Shown here: positions 5,500-32,525 of the stretch, one piece after another
Layout: every line of letters starts with the position of its first letter
How positions within the stretch are numbered: the stretch's first letter is position 1
IMG/VR virus record: IMGVR_UViG_2585427782_000001
Direction: 5' to 3' (one strand)
Length of the DNA: 33,888 nt
Source of the DNA: a virus
Lineage: Duplodnaviria > Heunggongvirae > Uroviricota > Caudoviricetes
The notes under the pieces: model-generated
Told to the model about the DNA's origin: nothing
The model's input: only the letters and a program-made list of their open reading frames with translations
Databases searched by the model: none
Translations under genes and position numbers: made by a program

Positions 5500-6866
5500 T
5501 GCACTGGCACCTTCAGAGGGATCACCGGCACAAAGCCGGGATGCGTAATGGCATTACGCCGGATAATGTCCGCGTCACGCGCCGCGTTATCAAACCAGGT
5601 CGCCGCCAGCACCAGCGCGGGTAAAACCTCATCCGGTGTGCGCTGAATGATCCGTGCAGACTGTTCAAGGCGCGTGTTGATATCCGCATTCAGATCTGCT
5701 TTCACCCGGCGCAGCGCCAGAAACAGCGCATCACTGGTTGTACGGGACAACTCCTTATCAATTGCCGTATTCAGTGTGTCGCGAATGTCAGTCAGTTCTT
5801 CCCACGTCGGCAGGTCAACCGTGTTTTTCACCGCCGGTGCATTGTTCAGTGCCGGATGCGTGACGGAAGGCCAGCCAGTGCTCTGCGCGGGTGTTGTTGC
5901 CTGCCCCACTGCGGAATTCTGCATCACCGCGGAAGTTGTTGGCGCAGGCAATCGTGTGACGGCATACGCCGCTTCGCTGATTGCGGTCGTACGAAGGGTG
6001 CTGGCAACCACGTTACGCTGCTGCGTCGCCGTGGCGGTGGTTTTACTGTCCGTTTTCCAGACGCCGCGCGGTTGCAGATCGCTGCCGAGGCTGACACCGG
6101 AAAGCGTTTTGATCATGGTGACCAGGTCGCTGGCGTTACCATAAAGGCGTTTCCCGGTACGCCACATTTTCTGCACCTGCTCAACGAAATTTTTGCCTGA
6201 CGATGGCGGCGGCAGAAGTACCGAGATATCCCCCTGCAACAGCCTGGCGGCATCCGATACGGCAGAATCCACCACTTTCATCGCATCAGAAACATACCCC
6301 AGCATTATGCTGGCATTACCGATAACGTCGTTCTGCACGAAATCCGCCACACCATCGATACTGAAACCGCTGAAGCTGTCACTGATGCAGTCATCCAGTG
6401 CAGAACAGGATGACATCAGCGTCTGCGCCGTCGCCGCACCTGATGTGGGGTAAGAGAGTTCTCCTGCTTCGACAAACTTCAGGTCAAAGCGGACAATACG
6501 CCCTTCACTTTTCGATGTGCTGACCCGAACTTCCCCGTCAACACAGACTTTCAGCTCACCATATGTCGGGTGGACAAGCGTGCCGGGACCGGGTTTATTC
6601 AGCGCTTCAATCAGGCGATCGCGCTGGTCAAAGCAGTCATCTCCCACCACATAAGCTGTGATGGACGGGCGGAAAGTGACTTTTCCCAGATCTTCGGTAT
6701 AGGGTTTGTCGCGGTTCGGGTATTCGTGCGTTTCCACACGACGACCGGTTCCCGCACTTTCTTCTTCAACCTTAAACGGCACACCGCGAAATGACGCGTC
6801 CTGAAGTCTGTCTTTCCACGTCATATAAACTCCGTACATAAAAAATCCCACCGGAGTGGGACTCAT
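5496..6866 (-). CDS. Mu gp43-like DNA circulation protein (tail/baseplate)
   Basis: 456-aa ORF immediately downstream of the tape measure gene, as in Mu. Confidence 0.65.
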   Translation of the reverse strand: MSPTPVGFFMYGVYMTWKDRLQDASFRGVPFKVEEESAGTGRRVETHEYPNRDKPYTEDLGKVTFRPSITAYVVGDDCFDQRDRLIEALNKPGPGTLVHPTYGELKVCVDGEVRVSTSKSEGRIVRFDLKFVEAGELSYPTSGAATAQTLMSSCSALDDCISDSFSGFSIDGVADFVQNDVIGNASIMLGYVSDAMKVVDSAVSDAARLLQGDISVLLPPPSSGKNFVEQVQKMWRTGKRLYGNASDLVTMIKTLSGVSLGSDLQPRGVWKTDSKTTATATQQRNVVASTLRTTAISEAAYAVTRLPAPTTSAVMQNSAVGQATTPAQSTGWPSVTHPALNNAPAVKNTVDLPTWEELTDIRDTLNTAIDKELSRTTSDALFLALRRVKADLNADINTRLEQSARIIQRTPDEVLPALVLAATWFDNAARDADIIRRNAITHPGFVPVIPLKVPVQ

Positions 6867-6884: not shown

Positions 6885-8720
6885 TTACCTGCCAAAGCGC
6901 GTATAGCCAACATCATGGCTGACATCAAAACCGCTGGATCGCGTTTCCATAACCCGCATACCCGGAGGCGAATTCACAAAAGAGACCTTGATCTCACCAT
7001 CAACTTTTGGCGCAGAAGCTTTGTTAATCATGAAGGGGTTCGGGCCTGTGACATCGGAGGCGTTGTTTGACTGAGCCGGATCCACCACCGGATAAGGTGT
7101 GTATCCCCGCGCCGGTATTCCCGTCCCATAAGCATCATAAGCACCCGCGCCCCACTGCGCAGAGTTAATGGCATCGACCGTGTCACCGGAACTGTCGGTA
7201 AACCACTCAATAATTGGCTTCAGCTTGTCCCACATATCCTGAAACCACTTAACAACCGGCCCCCAGTTATTGATCACCATCCCCAGCGGCGACCAGGCAA
7301 AAACTTTCTTAAGGAGTTCCCAGCCAGCCTCAAAATAAGGACCAATGGTTTCCCAGAGTTTCTTAAAATAAGGTCCGACAACATCCCAGTTAGTGATAAT
7401 TAATCCCGCAGCCAGGGCTATCGCCGTCGCAATCATGCCAATCGGCGTCATCGACATGATCCTGCTGACAATACTGATGGCACCGCCAACACCCATCAAT
7501 CCCAGTTTCAGAATCGCAAGACCGGCAGCAAGCCCAACGACGCCGCGAATAACCCGGGGATTTTCATCCGCAAACTTCGTGAATTTCTCCCCCAACTCCC
7601 CCAGCCATTGCGTGATATTTTTAGCGTCACCAGAAAATGCGCCGCCAATAGCCGCAAGGCCGTTAGTTGCGGTCCCCGTCATTGCCTCCCACAGGTTGGA
7701 CAGCGTACCAAGCTGGGCCTGAACACGTTTATTCAGGCTGGCCTGTTTATTCATCTTCTGCTGGATCTGATCGTAGCCATCCTTTCCTTTATCGATTAGT
7801 GCATTGACCACCTGAAGGGTTTCGGCATCATCACCAAATATTGCCTTAAGTACACCTGTTCGCTTAACGTCGGTCAGTTTTCGCAGCTTTGCCAGTTGCC
7901 TGAACATGTTATCAAGACCGCCAAAACTTCCTTTGCCGTCAGTAAAATCGAGCTGTACCCCGAGTTTCTGGCGGGCCATGATTTTATTGACGTCCCTGAT
8001 TTTCTTAACGCTTAATCCGGACTGGATAACTTTTCGCAGGGCGTTACCTGCCGACTCCCCGTTCATCCCCATCTGATCCATCATGACGCTGATGGGGGCA
8101 AGGCTCTGTGCAGCCTGAAGACCGTCCTTGTTCACCATCTTCAGAACAGAGCTGGTTTTAGTGAAGAAGGACAACATGTTGGTATCGTCAACACCCAGAT
8201 AAAACGCCTTCTGGATAGTGTCGAACAGCCCCATCATGTCTTCTGACGCCGTTCCGGTAGCATCCTGCATCTTTGCAGCAAACTCAGCAGCCGCTTCCGG
8301 TGTTTTTTTCAGTTGTACCGCAAGATAAGCTGTCGCTTTACCCACACCACCAAGAATGTTTTCTGCCGGGATCCCCTGACGCACCAGCATCTGCATCATG
8401 TTCTGGAAATCAGCCGTTGTACCGGGTAGCTGGTTACCCAGGCCAATAGCCAGTTTATTGATGTCCTGAAAGCTCTTTCCAACCTCGCCGTTCGCATCCA
8501 TCATGGCGACTTTCAGCCCGGTGGCGGCGTTTTCCTGATCGGCATAAGATTTCAGGGAAAGCGTCAGACCAGCTGCCAGTCCGCCACCAAGCGCCAGCCC
8601 ACCCTGTGACGCTTCTTCCGCCTGGCGTTTAAATCCCCGGATTTTCTTTTGCATTTTCGACAGCGCGGGAGAAAGTCTGTCGACACCGGTGATCAACGCC
8701 TTAAGCTCAAATTCAGCCAT
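6885..8720 (-). CDS. tail tape measure protein
   Basis: 611-aa ORF with Ala/Gly-rich and hydrophobic segments typical of tape measure proteins; sits between the chaperone and baseplate genes. Confidence 0.85.
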   Translation of the reverse strand: MAEFELKALITGVDRLSPALSKMQKKIRGFKRQAEEASQGGLALGGGLAAGLTLSLKSYADQENAATGLKVAMMDANGEVGKSFQDINKLAIGLGNQLPGTTADFQNMMQMLVRQGIPAENILGGVGKATAYLAVQLKKTPEAAAEFAAKMQDATGTASEDMMGLFDTIQKAFYLGVDDTNMLSFFTKTSSVLKMVNKDGLQAAQSLAPISVMMDQMGMNGESAGNALRKVIQSGLSVKKIRDVNKIMARQKLGVQLDFTDGKGSFGGLDNMFRQLAKLRKLTDVKRTGVLKAIFGDDAETLQVVNALIDKGKDGYDQIQQKMNKQASLNKRVQAQLGTLSNLWEAMTGTATNGLAAIGGAFSGDAKNITQWLGELGEKFTKFADENPRVIRGVVGLAAGLAILKLGLMGVGGAISIVSRIMSMTPIGMIATAIALAAGLIITNWDVVGPYFKKLWETIGPYFEAGWELLKKVFAWSPLGMVINNWGPVVKWFQDMWDKLKPIIEWFTDSSGDTVDAINSAQWGAGAYDAYGTGIPARGYTPYPVVDPAQSNNASDVTGPNPFMINKASAPKVDGEIKVSFVNSPPGMRVMETRSSGFDVSHDVGYTRFGR

Positions 8721-9487: not shown

Positions 9488-10983
9488 TATGCAGACTCCT
9501 CTGAATACTGAAGACGGAACTGATTAACCACGGCAAAGACACGCAGCTGGTTAACATAGTCAGGCGGGAACAGCGTGTTCAGGCGGTTCGGATCGCTGGC
9601 ATCACGCTCCACAACCAGGTGCTGCTTAAACAGTTCGTAGTTTTCCACGATCCCCGCATGCTCAAGCTGACGGTAGGTTGCCAGCAGTTCCCCTTTGATC
9701 ACCGCCGGTGTGACAATCGCCTGACCGGGACCAAAGCGGGTACCGTCGCTGGCAAGCTTGTGACGCCCGTACTTACTGGTAATGACGGATTTCAGTTTGC
9801 GCAGCACATACGCGCTGGTATGCAGCGTCTCGCTGTCGAGGTAGCTGTTATCCGCAACCCCGTAAGCGTTTTTCCTGTACGTGGTGACATCACGCTGAAT
9901 GCGCAGTACCCCGCTTTCGACATACGCCGTTGCCACGCCATGAGACAGCAGGGTCTGTTGTTCGGTCATCGTGAACCGTTTCCCCTTCGGCGCAGGCAGC
10001 ATACCCACCAGCTCACCGGTCTGCGTGGGACGTGCCGGATCGTTGCGGATAAACACCGCTGCGCGGGCGGTACGGCTTGCCGCCAGCTCGTCGGCAGGCG
10101 TCTGGGTCTCTTTTTCGTATCCCGCCAGGGTAATGTGCTGCTGGTTAAACTGGTCACCTGCGGTCACCAGTTCTGACAGCGTGCCGATCTTTGCCGTATA
10201 CACATGACCATACAGCTGACGCGCATAGCTCCAGCGACCGCTGGTATCGTTCATCTCGGTCACCAGCGTGTTAACGGAGGCCGTGTCGTTGAACGGCAGG
10301 CCGATATAATCAAACGGCTCATCCGCCATTGCAGCCACCGCGCCGGTGAGAACAGGAGCGCCCGTTCCAGCGGTACCCGTCGCCACGGCAATCTGTACGC
10401 CCGCTGGCAGCACTTCGCCCCCACCAAAGCCGTAGTAATTGAGGCTGACAGGAATTTCATTCCCGCAAAGCCCCTTATGACGCGCGGTCAGTGTGACCAC
10501 GCCTGCCGAAGATGAAGCCGTAAACGGCAGGGTCGGAACGGCATTGATGGCATCCTGAATACTACTGGCAATCATCGTGACGTTATCGCCGTTAGTCACC
10601 GGTGCCTGCACGCGGGTACGTCCCACATACACATTCACCGTGCCGGTTTCGGTTGCCGCCCCGGTCACCGTCAGCGTAACTGTTGCCGCCGCGCCCGTGG
10701 ATTCAGGAACGGCAATCACATACAGTTCACCAAACGGGTCGGTCTGGCGATAAGCCTCGACCATACGCGCCAGCTGACTTCCCGCACCACAAATCTGGCG
10801 TGCATAGTCTGCCGATGGCATCAGCACCAGACTGTTGGCAACAATCTCTGCACCGTTACTGGCGTGACCAATCAGCAGCGATGCCCCGCTGTCCTGTGCA
10901 GTATTCGCCGCCGAGTTATCCATTTCCGCATAAAACAGCGGAACCAGCGTATTCGACGGAATGGTGTTAAAGCTTATCGTCAT
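9487..10983 (-). CDS. contractile tail sheath protein (Mu L-like)
   Basis: 498-aa ORF; size and position (sheath-tube-chaperone-tape measure order). Confidence 0.85.
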   Translation of the reverse strand: MTISFNTIPSNTLVPLFYAEMDNSAANTAQDSGASLLIGHASNGAEIVANSLVLMPSADYARQICGAGSQLARMVEAYRQTDPFGELYVIAVPESTGAAATVTLTVTGAATETGTVNVYVGRTRVQAPVTNGDNVTMIASSIQDAINAVPTLPFTASSSAGVVTLTARHKGLCGNEIPVSLNYYGFGGGEVLPAGVQIAVATGTAGTGAPVLTGAVAAMADEPFDYIGLPFNDTASVNTLVTEMNDTSGRWSYARQLYGHVYTAKIGTLSELVTAGDQFNQQHITLAGYEKETQTPADELAASRTARAAVFIRNDPARPTQTGELVGMLPAPKGKRFTMTEQQTLLSHGVATAYVESGVLRIQRDVTTYRKNAYGVADNSYLDSETLHTSAYVLRKLKSVITSKYGRHKLASDGTRFGPGQAIVTPAVIKGELLATYRQLEHAGIVENYELFKQHLVVERDASDPNRLNTLFPPDYVNQLRVFAVVNQFRLQYSEESA

Positions 10984-25899: not shown

Positions 25900-26061
25900 C
25901 CCTTGCAAATGGGTGGCGCGATGATCACTACTACCACTATAACCGCTCCAACTGTTGCAACTACTTTAGGCCAAGACATCAAGATCTCCATATCACCTTT
26001 AGCTGCGAAACGAACAGAGGTTCCCATCTCTATACTGCCGAGGCCAAACACCGAATATAAA

Positions 26062-26181
26062 AACCGCAGGTGCATTTCTGCATCTATGACGGGAGAAGAT
26101 AGTTTGGATTGTGTGGGCTCATAAACTCCCCGTTTGGTGCAGTAGTCACCGTAGTTGTTCATATTCTGATGACATGATAAT
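26062..26181. repeat. direct repeat copy 2 (~120 bp), right boundary of the inserted module
   Basis: See copy 1 at 23676-23796. Confidence 0.8.
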
Positions 26182-26381
26182 TTCCTATTGAATAGAAAAA
26201 ATTAACACTACTCATTCTTATGACTGGAAAAAGCAATCATGCTAATAATCATTGTTGTTCCAGTTCCAAATGCAGCGAAATAATCACTAATATTTTTTTT
26301 CTACCGGTTTCGACTTTGATGCTATATTCTGCCAACACCTAACTAACACTACGTTTCACACAGCAATTACATGGAAATAAC

Positions 26382-26729
26382 ATGACTATCAAAGCGACTG
26401 ACATAGAGATTCTTCATCGTTATGCTGAAGGGGTAATGGAACGTTCTAACCATCATGCAAAAAATGTTGGTGCAGCCGCTCTTACATTGCTAGGAGGTGT
26501 TATCTGGAAAGCCCTGCCCGGCTCAATCGAGATAAGAACTTATAACGGAAGTCTTGCAAATATGGTATGGTGGAAAAGCGAAAGTACATTAAAAAATTAT
26601 GCAATATCATACAACCATGATTCATGTGAAATTGAAATGAGAGATGGATCAGTCAAAGGTGCTGTTTTGTTTAGCATTTCCAACAAAACTACTCCAGAAA
26701 AAATATTATCACAGCTTTCTGAACTTTAA
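26382..26729 (+). CDS. hypothetical protein on the opposite strand in an AT-rich island
   Basis: 115-aa ORF convergent with P; a GC-rich hairpin (26735-26752) lies just after its stop; no recognised family. Confidence 0.4.
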   Translation: MTIKATDIEILHRYAEGVMERSNHHAKNVGAAALTLLGGVIWKALPGSIEIRTYNGSLANMVWWKSESTLKNYAISYNHDSCEIEMRDGSVKGAVLFSISNKTTPEKILSQLSEL

Positions 26730-26934
26730 TTAAAGGCGGTGCTAACACCGCCCCATACCATTACTCCACATCTTACGCAACTTGATAATTATGCTCTATT
26801 AAATACCCACAATATTTCATCAATGCATGGGCCAGCTACAAAATATTTACCGTGGTTATTCCTGTTTTCGCAACATCTCAAAAGAACAATAAACACTGTA
26901 TTTCTTCAAGTAACGAAGAATCTTTCTTTGCCTG

Positions 26935-29257: not shown

Positions 29258-29488
29258 TTAAGCTGCGTTCTTTTCGGTGTGTGGAAACAACTTCGGAAGA
29301 TCCGGGCGAATCTGGTATGCCTTCACTACTCCACCAGTAGCCGTAACAATGCTGCCGACATGTTCAGGGGATACCTTTGCTTTGTTGTGAAGCCACTTAT
29401 AGACGGCCTGCTGTGAAACTTCGCAAGCAGCGCCCAGTTTCTTTTGTGAACCAACGATATTGATCGCTGTTTTGATAGCTGGGTTCAT
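29258..29488 (-). CDS. Cro-like repressor (small HTH protein)
   Basis: 76-aa ORF divergent from cI with GGAGG RBS; ..QKKLGAACEVSQQAVYKW.. is helix-turn-helix-like. Confidence 0.65.
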   Translation of the reverse strand: MNPAIKTAINIVGSQKKLGAACEVSQQAVYKWLHNKAKVSPEHVGSIVTATGGVVKAYQIRPDLPKLFPHTEKNAA

Positions 29489-29592
29489 AACAACCTCCGT
29501 GGTTAATTTGAATCAAAATTAAAACTATGGTTGTTTTTAGTCAACAACTATTTTCGTTTGATGGAATAAAACCTTGGTTGTACATTTGGACT
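29489..29592. promoter_or_regulatory. divergent pR / pRM-like promoter and operator region
   Basis: Minus strand: TTGACT-17-TAATTT then GGAGG and the cro ATG. Plus strand: TTGATG-17-TACATT ending 6 nt before the cI ATG (leaderless-like). Palindromes ttaatttgaatcaaaattaa (29503-29522) and GTTGTT-N7-AACAAC (29530-29548). Confidence 0.55.
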
Positions 29593-30282
29593 ATGAAAAC
29601 AACACTCTCAGAAAGACTTAAAGAAGCCAGATTAGCGCGAGGCCTTACACAAAAGGCGCTTGGGGATTTGGTCGGGGTTAGCCAGGCTGCTATTCAGAAA
29701 ATCGAAACAGGGAAAGCTAATCAAACAACTAAAATCGTGGAGATCGCGAACGCTTTGGGTGTGCGCGCAGAATGGTTATCTTCTGGCGTTGGAAATATGT
29801 CAGACAGTACAGTGCAACCAATACAATCAACTGTCAGCCATTCCAAATACTTTAAGATTGACGTTCTTGATATAGAAGTGAGTGCCGGGCCGGGAGTCAT
29901 CAACCGTGAGTTTGTAGAAGTTCTACGCTCGGTTGAGTACTCGTTTGACGATGCTCGTCACATGTTCGATGGTAGGAAGGCAGAAAATATCCGCATCATT
30001 AACGTACGCGGTGACAGCATGTCAGGAACGATCGAACCAGGTGACCTTTTGTTCGTTGATATCACTGTTAAATCTTTCGACGGTGATGGTATCTATGCGT
30101 TTCTGTACGACGACACAGCCCATGTAAAGCGCCTGCAAATGATGAAGGATAAGCTGCTCGTTATCTCTGATAACAAGAGTTACTCACCGTGGGACCCGAT
30201 CGAGAAAGACGAGATGAACCGGGTATTCATTTTCGGGAAAGTCATCGGGAGCATGCCGCAGACGTACAGGAAGCATGGGTAA
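29593..30282 (+). CDS. CI-type repressor (HTH plus LexA-like S24 peptidase domain)
   Basis: MKTTLSERLKEARLARGLTQKALGDLVGVSQAAIQKIETGK (HTH) and ..VRGDSMSGTIEPGDLLFVD..HVKRL.. (Ser/Lys dyad region); start set at the internal ATG at 29593. Confidence 0.9.
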   Translation: MKTTLSERLKEARLARGLTQKALGDLVGVSQAAIQKIETGKANQTTKIVEIANALGVRAEWLSSGVGNMSDSTVQPIQSTVSHSKYFKIDVLDIEVSAGPGVINREFVEVLRSVEYSFDDARHMFDGRKAENIRIINVRGDSMSGTIEPGDLLFVDITVKSFDGDGIYAFLYDDTAHVKRLQMMKDKLLVISDNKSYSPWDPIEKDEMNRVFIFGKVIGSMPQTYRKHG

Positions 30283-30330
30283 ACATGGAACTTATGAAAC
30301 TTTAAATTAATTAAATATTGAGTTTATATA

Positions 30331-30747
30331 ATGCAACATAATATTCATAGTGATTATTTCAAGTGGTGGTGCGGAACAGTAATCATTGGAGCAATCCCTA
30401 TCTTTATTAGATTTATTGCTTATTTCATCACTAATAAAAACATAGAGCTGATCAATATAACTGAGTTGATATGTTTTGGCTTTGCCATACAAATATCCAG
30501 TATTTATTACGGAATGGGCCAACCCAGCAAGCAAACTGAAAACAATATTATTATAAACACTACCATATCGATTGTTTTCATTGTACTTTTTTCTATAATT
30601 TACATTATTGTTATGCTGGCTGATAACATCCTTAACATGAATACGACTCGCATATTAGTCGCTATTACTTGTGGTATATCCTTATACATTGGACAAAATT
30701 CAGTCAGGTGTGCTATTATCAATAACAAAGTAGTGGCGCAGGAGTAA
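30331..30747 (+). CDS. multi-helix membrane protein in the rexAB position (candidate exclusion/defence component)
   Basis: 138-aa ORF with 3-4 hydrophobic stretches (WWCGTVIIGAIPIFIRFIAYFI, ELICFGFAIQISSIYYGM, IIINTTISIVFIVLFSIIYIIVMLA, TRILVAITCGISLYIG); visibly AT-rich; directly downstream of cI on the same strand. Confidence 0.5.
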   Translation: MQHNIHSDYFKWWCGTVIIGAIPIFIRFIAYFITNKNIELINITELICFGFAIQISSIYYGMGQPSKQTENNIIINTTISIVFIVLFSIIYIIVMLADNILNMNTTRILVAITCGISLYIGQNSVRCAIINNKVVAQE

Positions 30748-30750
30748 ATT

Positions 30751-30927
30751 ATGGAGTACTTAATTACTATTTTATCCATAATAGCTGTTGTGATACCTGC
30801 TGTATTGGCATGGTTTTCAAGAAAAAACCTCAAAAATGCACAGGAAACTTTAATGCACATAGAAAGGGTCAGAAAGTCAAATAGCGATGACTTTGAAAGA
30901 AAGAAAGAACAACTTAAATATCACTAA
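30751..30927 (+). CDS. small single-helix protein (58 aa), translationally coupled
   Basis: GGAG overlaps the stop of the upstream gene, 6 nt before the ATG; MEYLITILSIIAVVIPAVLAWFSRKNLKNAQETLMHIERVRKSNSDDFERKKEQLKYH; below the ORF-track size cutoff. Confidence 0.35.
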   Translation: MEYLITILSIIAVVIPAVLAWFSRKNLKNAQETLMHIERVRKSNSDDFERKKEQLKYH

Positions 30928-30937
30928 TGGAATTGGT

Positions 30938-31837
30938 ATGCAGTTAAAAAATATCATTTATATTGATTATGAGAAGGTCTACTCTTTAAGCTCTCAATTA
31001 TTTGAGGGCGTAATTCAATCCGCGATGGAGCATAAAGAGTCTACTCTTTCAAATATAGATGCAGTCGAAATAAAGACAAAAAGTAGTTCAAGTAAAACGA
31101 GTGACACAAAAAAAATATCAACAGTGTTAAACCCTCATGATTATCATTATCTGAAATTTGAAAACGAACTTAGCAAAAGAGGAATTCTGTCTAACATAAC
31201 TTCCCCGATCGACTCGAACAAAATTAAGGCTAATTGCTTTGTTAAAATCACCTGCCCAATTCAATTTAATGACTATAATAAATTAAAAAATACCGCTAAG
31301 AATTTCTGTAAAACTAACTATGCTATTAATTTCGTTCATCGAAATGACGAATTAGAAAGTCTAGAATCGATGCTGAAATCGATAAAACCCAAATCCAATG
31401 AATTTAATATTATCAAGGCAAGACAAGCAGAAATTAAAAGTGAGCTTGATAATTTAACATCTCCAAATCAGAAAAAATTCTTTGAGCATTTGTCTTCTGT
31501 TTTAGATTACGCATATGGTGACGAAATAGAAATATCACAAAAAATGCAAGATATTAAATTCACCTCATTCTTAATCAGAGATTTTCTTAAAATCAGTCCA
31601 GAAATGTTTGTAAAGTTATATTCTCGTCGAACGACCTCTGCATTCACAGTCGTAGGGATGATAACGCGTACATCAACGTCTGAAGGTAATCAGGAATCAG
31701 AGGCTCGTGAACTAAACGGCATTCGCAGTGCAGTCTGGAATATGAATGACAGCCTTTTTGATCTGGAGTCAACATTTTGCGCCCCTGACTCTGATGAGTA
31801 TTTCATTGAGCCTATTGCTGTTTACAATGAGCTATAA
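30938..31837 (+). CDS. hypothetical soluble protein (~300 aa), third gene of the cI-downstream operon
   Basis: AT-rich, Lys/Asn/Ser-rich ORF with no nucleotide-binding or nuclease motif recognisable by eye; start could instead be the ATG at 30887 (316 aa); followed by a terminator. Confidence 0.5.
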   Translation: MQLKNIIYIDYEKVYSLSSQLFEGVIQSAMEHKESTLSNIDAVEIKTKSSSSKTSDTKKISTVLNPHDYHYLKFENELSKRGILSNITSPIDSNKIKANCFVKITCPIQFNDYNKLKNTAKNFCKTNYAINFVHRNDELESLESMLKSIKPKSNEFNIIKARQAEIKSELDNLTSPNQKKFFEHLSSVLDYAYGDEIEISQKMQDIKFTSFLIRDFLKISPEMFVKLYSRRTTSAFTVVGMITRTSTSEGNQESEARELNGIRSAVWNMNDSLFDLESTFCAPDSDEYFIEPIAVYNEL

Positions 31838-31843
31838 AAACAA

Positions 31844-31870
31844 CCCGGCCACCGTGCCGGGTTTTCTTTT
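31844..31870 (+). terminator. intrinsic terminator closing the cI-distal operon
   Basis: CCCGGC-caccgt-GCCGGG followed by TTTTCTTTT. Confidence 0.6.
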
Positions 31871-31998
31871 GCCCCTCCCCTCATCACACACACCGTTCAA
31901 AAAACCACCACAACCTCGCTTCAGTTATCGCTATGCGATGCAAGTCACAAAATAAATCCATCCTAAATACAACCAGTTATTTCTAAAATAACCAACAA

Positions 31999-32041
31999 AA
32001 CAACTTTTGTTGTTGACGATAAAACAACTATAGTTTTAAAT
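31999..32041 (+). promoter_or_regulatory. pL-like promoter with overlapping palindromic operator candidates
   Basis: Perfect palindrome aacaacttttgttgtt (31999-32014) overlaps -35 TTGACG (32013-32018); 17-nt spacer; -10 TTAAAT (32036-32041); second palindrome aactatagtt (32026-32035) sits in the spacer. Confidence 0.4.
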
Positions 32042-32147
32042 GAATTCATCGCAACAACACAACGATACGGCAATCACCTGATTCACCGTTGCGATGACCG
32101 CTTAGATCCGCAGCTTGAATTTCAGCAGGCTCCGGGGAGTGCGAGGG

Positions 32148-32525
32148 GTGAAGCGGACGCGTGAACGTCGGTGTGACCAGCTGAAATCAACTCAACACTT
32201 CATACCTCAGTCGCTTCAACGAGGCGGCTTAGTTATGACAACCGGCGGCCATCCACCGCCTGAATACGCGCAGAAGTCTATATATGTTCAGCAGCCCAGC
32301 TTACGGGCAGGAGTTTTTATGGTTCATCAACATTACGGAACGCAGACCGTTAATCGCGGTGCGGTCATGCCAGGAATGCTGGTCAAACACAAAGATGGTA
32401 CCTGGACTGCATCAGCTAATTTACGCGGACGGCTATATCTGCATCGCGGCATCGAGCGCACTTATACCCGTGATTTGCTCGTGGAAGTTTTTCTCGACGG
32501 ACGCGGCAACGGCCTGAATCACTAA
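32148..32525 (+). CDS. candidate N-like antiterminator with Arg-rich N-terminus
   Basis: The ORF-track start at 32115 is a TTG. A GTG at 32148 with GGGGAG 8 nt upstream gives an N-terminus KRTRERRCDQLK, reminiscent of the lambda N arginine-rich motif (QTRRRERRAEKQ). Alternative ATG start at 32235. Confidence 0.3.
   Translation: MKRTRERRCDQLKSTQHFIPQSLQRGGLVMTTGGHPPPEYAQKSIYVQQPSLRAGVFMVHQHYGTQTVNRGAVMPGMLVKHKDGTWTASANLRGRLYLHRGIERTYTRDLLVEVFLDGRGNGLNH

Follow-up and report, generated by a model that had tools for sequence, protein, structure and literature searches.

Genes and signals of the cassette

We analysed a 33,888-nucleotide stretch of viral DNA of the class Caudoviricetes (IMG/VR record IMGVR_UViG_2585427782_000001; the whole stretch is called the window below), which represents a lambdoid prophage of Escherichia coli. 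Between the stop codon of its cI-type repressor gene and an intrinsic terminator lie three co-oriented open reading frames (ORFs), all on the plus strand, encoding proteins of 138, 58 and 299 amino acids (aa). A first-pass annotation had placed them at 30331-30747, 30751-30927 and 30938-31837, on one strand after cI, and the ORF coordinates bear this out. Comparison with relatives makes the cassette a credible variant of DUF6414-based defence with a new pair of candidate membrane effectors. The features of the region are as follows.

29593..30282, plus strand: cI-type repressor, 229 aa, with Pfam domains HTH_3 (5.4e-13) and Peptidase_S24 (1.2e-18), at the head of the predicted unit that carries the cassette
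30283..30330, plus strand: left junction of the cargo, with an AT-rich spacer of 48 nt that separates the cI stop from the start of ORF1; homology with sister prophages breaks off at 30281-30283
30331..30747, plus strand: ORF1, 138 aa, four-helix integral membrane protein
30751..30927, plus strand: ORF2, 58 aa, single-pass membrane peptide
30938..31837, plus strand: ORF3, 299 aa, soluble DUF6414 (PF19952) protein
31842..31870, plus strand: intrinsic terminator; its 8-bp stem at 31842-31863 contains 6 GC pairs, and a T-run comes next
31975..32070, plus strand: OL/pL-type control region with operator-like AAAACAAC[TC][AT]T repeats and the hexamers TTGACG-17-TTAAAT, upstream of kil-gam-bet-exo

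ORF1 encodes a strongly hydrophobic protein (Kyte-Doolittle maximum 3.06). Its AlphaFold2 model contains helices at residues 7-33, 43-62, 67-96 and 103-137, at modest confidence (predicted local distance difference test, pLDDT, 67). Three to four hydrophobic helices had been expected, and hydropathy and the model settle on four. Motifs in the alignment are retained from Enterobacteriaceae to Bacteroidales, and the proportion of nonsynonymous differences (pN) is 0.17-0.31 against a saturated proportion of synonymous differences (pS) of 0.74-0.85. Purifying selection together with conservation across phyla thus identifies ORF1 as a genuine gene and not a chance ORF. No family from Pfam, NCBIfam, PHROG or PADLOC could be assigned to the protein, and none of its 22 homolog clusters carries a Pfam domain. 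We propose that it is a membrane effector or a channel subunit.

The gene was missed by PGAP in E. coli strain NADC1036, where it occupies positions 8049-8465 (window 30331-30747) and where ORF2 and ORF3 are annotated. The ORF1 family is probably under-annotated in RefSeq. In a prophage region of Pseudomonas yamanorum (5639-6023), ORF1 appears to be cut to a 77-aa C-terminal fragment beside intact ORF2 and DUF6414 genes, either because the copy is decaying, perhaps, or because the assembly contains a frameshift.

The GGAG motif upstream of ORF2 (GCGCAGGAGTAAATTATG) had been described as overlapping the ORF1 stop codon. It is present, but lies just before the stop and abuts it. ORF2 encodes one N-terminal transmembrane helix, in agreement with the claim of a single-helix protein, followed by a charged tail. 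Both the helix and the basic tail are conserved in an alignment of 22 orthologs. Constraint on ORF2 (ratio of nonsynonymous to synonymous substitution rates 0.35-0.68) is weaker than that on ORF1 and ORF3, and this peptide too has no family assignment in Pfam, NCBIfam, PHROG or PADLOC. We propose that it serves as an anchor or adaptor joining ORF1 to the DUF6414 protein, with its tail in the cytoplasm.

ORF3 lacks hydrophobic segments (Kyte-Doolittle maximum 0.63) and contains 28 lysines and 23 asparagines, as befits the soluble, Lys/Asn-rich protein of the first-pass annotation. A longer reading from 30887 exists; every homolog starts at the equivalent of 30938. The values of pN and pS are 0.29-0.36 and 0.76-0.81, respectively, and pairwise divergence indicates purifying selection on all three genes.

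The repressor is 100% identical to WP_000858975.1, annotated across many E. coli prophages, and a cro-like gene (29258-29488) is divergent from it. A scan of the gap 30283..30330 revealed neither terminator-like nor promoter-like sites. Since there is no terminator between cI and ORF1, the cassette is likely to be co-transcribed with cI. A sigma-70-like site at 30690-30719, in the 3' end of ORF1 and upstream of ORF2 (TGGACA-18-TATTAT, 10/12 matches, extended TG), recalls the lambda promoter pLIT inside rexA. We do not claim it as an internal promoter: six such sites were found in this AT-rich DNA against a shuffle expectation of 9.5.

Conservation of the three genes as a unit

The fetched DUF6414 loci were scanned with local hidden Markov models of the three proteins. 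ORF1 was found upstream of DUF6414 in 86 of 88 loci and ORF2 in 85, and the order ORF1-ORF2-DUF6414 on the same strand in 85/88. Later look-ups added two more loci with the three-gene arrangement. Such loci span Gammaproteobacteria, Bacteroidota, Campylobacterota, Bacteriovorax, Thermodesulfobacteriota and Nitrosomonas. Stop/start overlaps between the three genes are common and often 4 nt long.

The same three genes are present in prophages of Buttiauxella, Klebsiella and Pantoea, where the ORF3 homologs have 45-57% identity. A scan of reference genomes yielded 23 loci in Psychrobacter, Halomonadaceae, Methylobacter, Oceanospirillum, Photobacterium, Bacteroidales, Bacteriovorax, Thermodesulfobacteriota and Nitrosomonas. 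In all of them the first gene encodes a membrane protein of about 135 aa, the second a basic-tailed single-pass peptide of 42-64 aa, and the third DUF6414. When metagenomes were searched reciprocally, starting from ORF1, 50 of the 67 informative loci had DUF6414 downstream.

DUF6414 and the Dodola system

The first-pass annotation had recognised no similarity of the proteins to any family. This does not hold for ORF3. Its residues 3-296 match the entire PF19952 profile (positions 1-283 of 283) with 65.5 bits against the gathering cut-off of 25 (E=8.8e-18), and its database relatives, collected in sets of 80 and 37, all carry the same domain. Clustered at 50% identity, the DUF6414 family comprises 930 clusters with a threshold of E<=1e-3, and 228 with one of E<=1e-30. 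Invariant residues of ORF3 include Y8, D10, K13, S16, Q20, G24, D68, E75, D112, R230, E277 and E287. In the model of ORF3, the core is a beta-barrel, to which a helical insertion and a disordered loop (24-63) are added. A Foldseek search against PDB and BFVD returned nothing at E<0.05, and a profile search against PDB sequences returned chance matches only (E of at least 0.19). We propose that the protein is a cytoplasmic sensor or regulator, a role suggested by its partners.

Membership in DUF6414 links ORF3 to Dodola, a validated multi-gene anti-phage system. Dodola, composed of DolA and DolB, was reportedly described by Millman et al. in 2022; the text of the Millman preprint names neither Dodola nor DUF6414. 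It acts against SPP1, and in Streptococcus thermophilus its protection is broad. A passage of one review attributes DUF6414 to DolA, with a ClpB-related partner. One account (PMC11514479) is inconsistent on this point: the text gives the ClpB domain to DolB, whereas the AlphaFold paragraph likens DolA to Clp ATPases. Our literature search found no paper mentioning PF19952 or the RefSeq accessions of the cassette.

The differences from Dodola are considerable. Dodola has two genes, whereas the cassette has three. The ClpB-like DolB is absent from the cassette, where two small membrane proteins precede DUF6414 instead, and from about 160 related loci examined; no Clp-type Pfam match was seen in ORF1 or ORF2, nor any Clp_N-type gene beside DUF6414 in the annotated contexts. 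Dodola is known from Firmicutes, whereas the cassette clade is mostly from Proteobacteria and Bacteroidota, and a profile search with a 59-sequence DUF6414 alignment returned this clade only; none of the three homology searches, nor the genome scan, reached Firmicutes members. PADLOC v2 contains Dodola models. PADLOC-DB v2.0.0 gave no Dodola match with ORF3, with its relatives (18 close and 58 diverse ones) or with the relatives linked to TIR proteins described below, and no PADLOC model of any kind recognised ORF3 or 77 diverse relatives. Because it goes undetected by PADLOC and lacks a ClpB-like partner, the membrane-linked DUF6414 clade appears distinct from Dodola as currently defined. Matches of the cassette proteins to AbiEi, KwaA, LysB and holins in profile libraries were far below the cut-offs and were rejected as chance.

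Exchange of partners around DUF6414

In Corallococcus exiguus and in two metagenomic contigs, a soluble TIR protein of 239-266 aa precedes a full-length DUF6414 gene and replaces the membrane pair. The Corallococcus DUF6414 protein aligns with the ORF3 family at an hhalign probability of 100% (E=3e-44), and its gene shares one base with the TIR gene at the stop/start junction. Two TIR proteins scanned contain PF10137 (1e-32 to 1e-33), and among PADLOC models the TIR partners match the CBASS TIR effector (5e-47) and PycTIR (1e-36). PADLOC detects the TIR part of these modules (L037 1204-2897; L040 3663-5458; L170 3269-4960) and no system. The two-gene arrangement is probably an undescribed TIR-based defence system.

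A different partner is found in Chryseolinea (L167 2298-4972), where the gene 24 nt upstream of DUF6414 encodes an AAA_21/AAA_15 protein of 559 aa, whose OLD-like TOPRIM domain is a faint Pfam match. A NADase_transloc gene lies near this locus.

The membrane pair also occurs without DUF6414. ORF1 and ORF2 stand alone beside radC-argS. In other ORF1 loci lacking DUF6414, an ORF2-like anchor is fused to a 628-aa protein without a Pfam match (L137 594-2889) or to a 345-aa protein (L107 918-2375), and in one case a disrupted ORF1 is followed by a gene for a patatin-like phospholipase. The loci with ORF1 and no DUF6414 also include L165 (2935-4541), L125, L134 and L138. The fusion of ORF2-like helices to soluble domains suggests that ORF2 tethers a soluble component to ORF1.

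Judged by these gene neighbourhoods, the cassette is made of two separable modules, the membrane pair and DUF6414. TIR and OLD proteins are well established as effectors of defence, and CBASS, Pycsar, retron and Avs systems commonly use membrane proteins in this role. Since the alternative partners are established effectors, DUF6414 is most simply read as the constant sensor or regulator, and its partner as a swappable output.

Cargo in the lysogeny operon

Among 5426 complete E. coli genomes, NADC1036 is the single strain with the cassette, and its prophage copy has 99.9% identity with that of the window. A megablast search of 50,697 phage records and a tblastn search of plasmids found nothing. 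In prophages with an identical cI, the left flank is shared as far as the cI stop at 30282, and the shared right flank begins at 31839-31844, that is, at the terminator. These breakpoints agree with the earlier suggestion of a horizontally acquired block, variable between conserved flanks. The cargo is 30283-31841. The terminator is a part of the shared phage backbone, because homology to sister prophages resumes at 31842. Thus the clean terminator reported to close the block is real, but it does not belong to the cargo. It is kept in all sister prophages, whatever cargo precedes it, and the lambda terminator after rexB is likewise backbone. The hairpin at 31842-31863 also scores as an intrinsic terminator on the minus strand.

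The GC content of the cassette is 0.326, compared to 0.489 in the left flank and 0.511 in the right flank, so the description of an AT-rich block between GC-balanced flanks stands. Being present or absent between conserved flanks, and deviating in GC content (0.33 against about 0.50), the cassette is a moron. The same deviation is seen in four different genera (about 0.31-0.36 against 0.47-0.51 in the host phages), and the cassette is AT-rich in most viral contigs too. Its position in the cI-to-terminator slot places it inside the cI transcription unit.

The slot behind the identical cI allele (WP_000858975.1) is empty in strain TOE3. In other strains it contains two hypothetical genes (87 and 147 aa), a HipA kinase with DUF3037, an ASCH protein, ImmA with DUF4411, or a BamE-like protein. 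The contents of the slot across strains with the identical cI form a ready catalogue of candidate lysogen-expressed cargo.

Placement after a repressor recurs in other phages. By our own reading of overlapping domain counts, the gene directly upstream is of the repressor type in about 12 of 23 non-redundant phage and prophage loci (HTH_3 in 8, Peptidase_S24 in 5, Phage_CI_repr in 5, Phage_CI_C in 4). At least three repressor architectures precede the cassette: HTH_3 with S24, short HTH_3/CI_repr, and the 186-type CI_repr with CI_C. One such locus is that of the P2/186-like Vibrio phage 10N.286.54.E4_PE001, with the 186-type CI on one side of the cassette and the integrase on the other. In lambdoid phages the interval from cI to N is a mosaic hotspot, with rexAB in lambda and bstA in BTP1 (PMC8585504).

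Downstream of the terminator, operator-like repeats at 31997, 32021 and 32056 match those of the cro-cI intergenic region at 29527-29606; the motif AAAACAAC[TC][AT]T has 20 matches across the window against 8.4 expected. The candidate promoter hexamers TTGACG-17-TTAAAT were read by eye and were not picked up by the promoter scanner. In the annotation of NADC1036, kil, gam, bet and exo follow this region. Flanked by cI on one side and by the OL/pL-type region before kil-gam-bet-exo on the other, the cassette is in the position of lambda rexAB. No N-type antiterminator is annotated before kil in NADC1036 (9555-10038, window 31870-32320), where no search was aimed at small N-like ORFs or nut sites.

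The resemblance to RexAB extends beyond the slot itself (behind cI, in the same orientation, and ahead of the terminator and OL/pL). In both systems a four-helix membrane protein (about 140 aa) is accompanied by a soluble one (about 280-300 aa), and both are expected to be expressed in the lysogen. For both, an abortive logic of a sensor and a membrane channel has been proposed (for RexAB, see PMC8585504). The phenotype characteristic of RexAB is the exclusion of T4 rII-type phages through membrane depolarisation. On the other hand, the cassette starts with the membrane protein, the reverse of the order in lambda, includes an additional single-pass peptide, and is widespread outside phages. 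Homology was looked for and rejected: hhalign gives a probability of 0.24% for ORF1 with RexB (alignment A3) and 0.06% for ORF3 with RexA, and neither protein has a Pfam Rex match. Of the likeness noted in the first-pass annotation, the shared slot and the membrane-plus-soluble logic remain, as an analogy and not as homology.

The same placement would suit superinfection exclusion (Sie). The complex would then stop DNA from entering at the inner membrane and leave the cell alive, as SieA, Sim and T4 Imm do, and the DUF6414 protein would be a peripheral accessory. Two inner-membrane proteins in a lysogeny operon are the classic Sie arrangement, and the cassette directly follows the repressor in many temperate phages. 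However, the module is equally common outside prophages, beside housekeeping genes, and homologous DUF6414 proteins have soluble TIR or OLD-like partners that are unable to block injection. Besides, known Sie proteins are usually single and small, and profile libraries gave no match of the Sie type. We consider this explanation very unlikely.

Proposed mechanism

The interpretation we favour is a three-gene anti-phage module that is expressed in the lysogen and acts by abortive infection or exclusion through a membrane effector; we rate it about evenly balanced between right and wrong. The cI transcript of the lysogen would also yield ORF1, ORF2 and ORF3. The DUF6414 protein, residing in the cytoplasm, would detect some feature of a superinfecting phage. 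ORF2, through its cytoplasmic tail, would relay the signal to the membrane complex of ORF1 and ORF2. This complex would switch to a permeabilising or depolarising state at the inner membrane, and phage development would stop. Such a system would be a functional counterpart of the RexA/RexB logic, built from unrelated proteins. The comparisons described above show the layout of the genes, their conservation as a unit, purifying selection, cargo status, placement in repressor operons and exchange of partners; from these we infer the defence function, the roles of sensor and effector, and the membrane-permeabilising activity.

One possibility is that the polarity is the opposite one, similar to the situation in Kiwa. 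There, a small polytopic membrane protein is likewise combined with a soluble DUF-type protein, also in phages, but the system has two genes, the membrane protein is the sensor and the soluble protein is the effector. Transferred to the cassette, ORF1 and ORF2 would sense adsorption, DNA injection or envelope perturbation, and the DUF6414 protein would be the effector, its OB-like barrel binding phage nucleic acid or the replication machinery. This is unlikely, though it deserves more credit than superinfection exclusion. Firstly, DUF6414 is elsewhere paired with canonical effectors, TIR and OLD-like proteins, and two effectors with no sensor would be an odd combination. Secondly, the OB-like structural matches of the DUF6414 model are of moderate Z and extend over no more than about 80 residues, and nothing significant was found by Foldseek. 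Finally, there is no sequence relation to KwaA or KwaB (DUF4868): only ORF2 scores with the NCBIfam KwaA model, at 13.1 bits where the cut-off is 100, and PADLOC and Pfam give no match.

Several observations weigh against the interpretation as an abortive module with a DUF6414 sensor. The DUF6414 model shows only an OB-like barrel, and the protein could thus be a nucleic-acid-binding effector and not a sensor. The suggested link of DUF6414 to DolA is through shared Pfam membership and one review statement, and no model of known function in PADLOC, NCBIfam or PHROG matches any of the three proteins. The case for co-transcription with cI comes from the absent terminator. About a quarter of the loci found with ORF1 (17 of 67) have ORF1 and ORF2 without DUF6414. 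Because it occurs in this form, the membrane pair may have a function of its own. The locus sets behind such fractions as 85/88 and 50 of 67 are biased by the search patterns, include near-duplicates and are not phylogenetically independent, and the fractions are descriptive. In addition, many non-phage copies lie among housekeeping genes (alaS, ylqF, recA, argS).

The surroundings of the non-phage copies are heterogeneous. Some copies adjoin integrases, AAA_15/AAA_21 with DUF3696, NERD, ParDE, Panacea, PD-T4-4, type IIG restriction-modification or Cas1 genes. The 97 ORFs neighbouring non-phage copies are a mixture of many housekeeping and some defence genes; with no baseline available, this composition is not strong evidence.

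These neighbourhoods bear on the explanations in which the cassette has no defence role. It might be an addiction module of the toxin-antitoxin (TA) kind, or a membrane function contributing to lysogenic conversion, such as stress tolerance, transport or envelope remodelling. The copies among housekeeping genes agree with this, as do the occurrence of ORF1 and ORF2 alone and the fact that the cargo in the same slot elsewhere includes TA-like modules with HipA-type kinases. On the other hand, DUF6414 is the family of Dodola, its members exchange partners with TIR and OLD-like effectors, the cassette has been captured repeatedly in repressor operons of unrelated phages, and its distribution is patchy and horizontally transferred. 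The combination of family, swapping, capture and patchiness is the standard signature of defence genes. Moreover, TA modules and abortive-infection systems overlap mechanistically. A non-defence role is therefore quite unlikely, and defence, as judged from sequence comparison, is the best reading of the cassette.

Comparison with other modular systems

The three-gene mobile architecture of a multi-pass membrane protein, a single-pass protein and a soluble third protein is shared with Rst_2TM_1TM_TIR, which Rousset et al. are said to have described in 2022 from hotspots of phages and satellites. The third protein there has a TIR domain, and TIR proteins are alternative DUF6414 partners in Myxococcota and other lineages. 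However, TIR accompanies the membrane proteins in Rst_2TM_1TM_TIR, whereas among the DUF6414 relatives it replaces the membrane pair. The PADLOC models of Rst do not match ORF1, ORF2 or ORF3, and the cassette contains no TIR domain.

In CBASS and Pycsar, TIR, transmembrane and possibly patatin outputs are interchanged around a constant upstream component, much as is seen with DUF6414 and the ORF1 module. No cyclase or cyclic-nucleotide-sensing domain was found in the cassette or in the genes called beside the examined DUF6414 genes. The CBASS and PycTIR models of PADLOC include a nucleotide-binding domain, whereas the TIR proteins linked to DUF6414 match the TIR part only.

A more general scheme may be drawn from these comparisons. 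DUF6414 could be the common sensor of a large, mostly unrecognised modular superfamily, whose outputs would be the membrane pair (the commonest), TIR NADases, OLD-type nucleases and the ClpB-like DolB, with Dodola as a minor branch. ORF1 and ORF2 would then be new phage-triggered permeabilising effectors, a non-homologous equivalent of RexB that has been repeatedly wired into repressor operons. We put this scheme forward tentatively, as plausible but somewhat short of probable.

If the cassette is indeed a defence system, a widespread system has escaped detection by PADLOC-DB v2.0.0, and Dodola, whose mechanism has been undefined so far, gains a broader comparative framework. The combination of a constant DUF6414 with variable outputs would allow one to test which part senses and which acts. 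The E. coli prophage would provide a small and tractable example in the rexAB position, where the 60-year-old model of a soluble sensor opening a membrane channel could be examined with unrelated proteins. The cI-to-terminator slot is documented here as a cargo hotspot of this prophage lineage and should be useful for finding further systems.

The window contains another AT-rich patch, at 26000-26900 (GC 0.34-0.40), between the replication gene P and a Bro-N/P22AR gene. An ORF on the plus strand of this patch (26382-26726) encodes a protein of the VCH_CASS14 integron-cassette type (Pfam, 4.7e-21). At the equivalent place the NADC1036 prophage has a pair of genes encoding RloB and an AAA ATPase. 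The patch looks like a second cargo hotspot.

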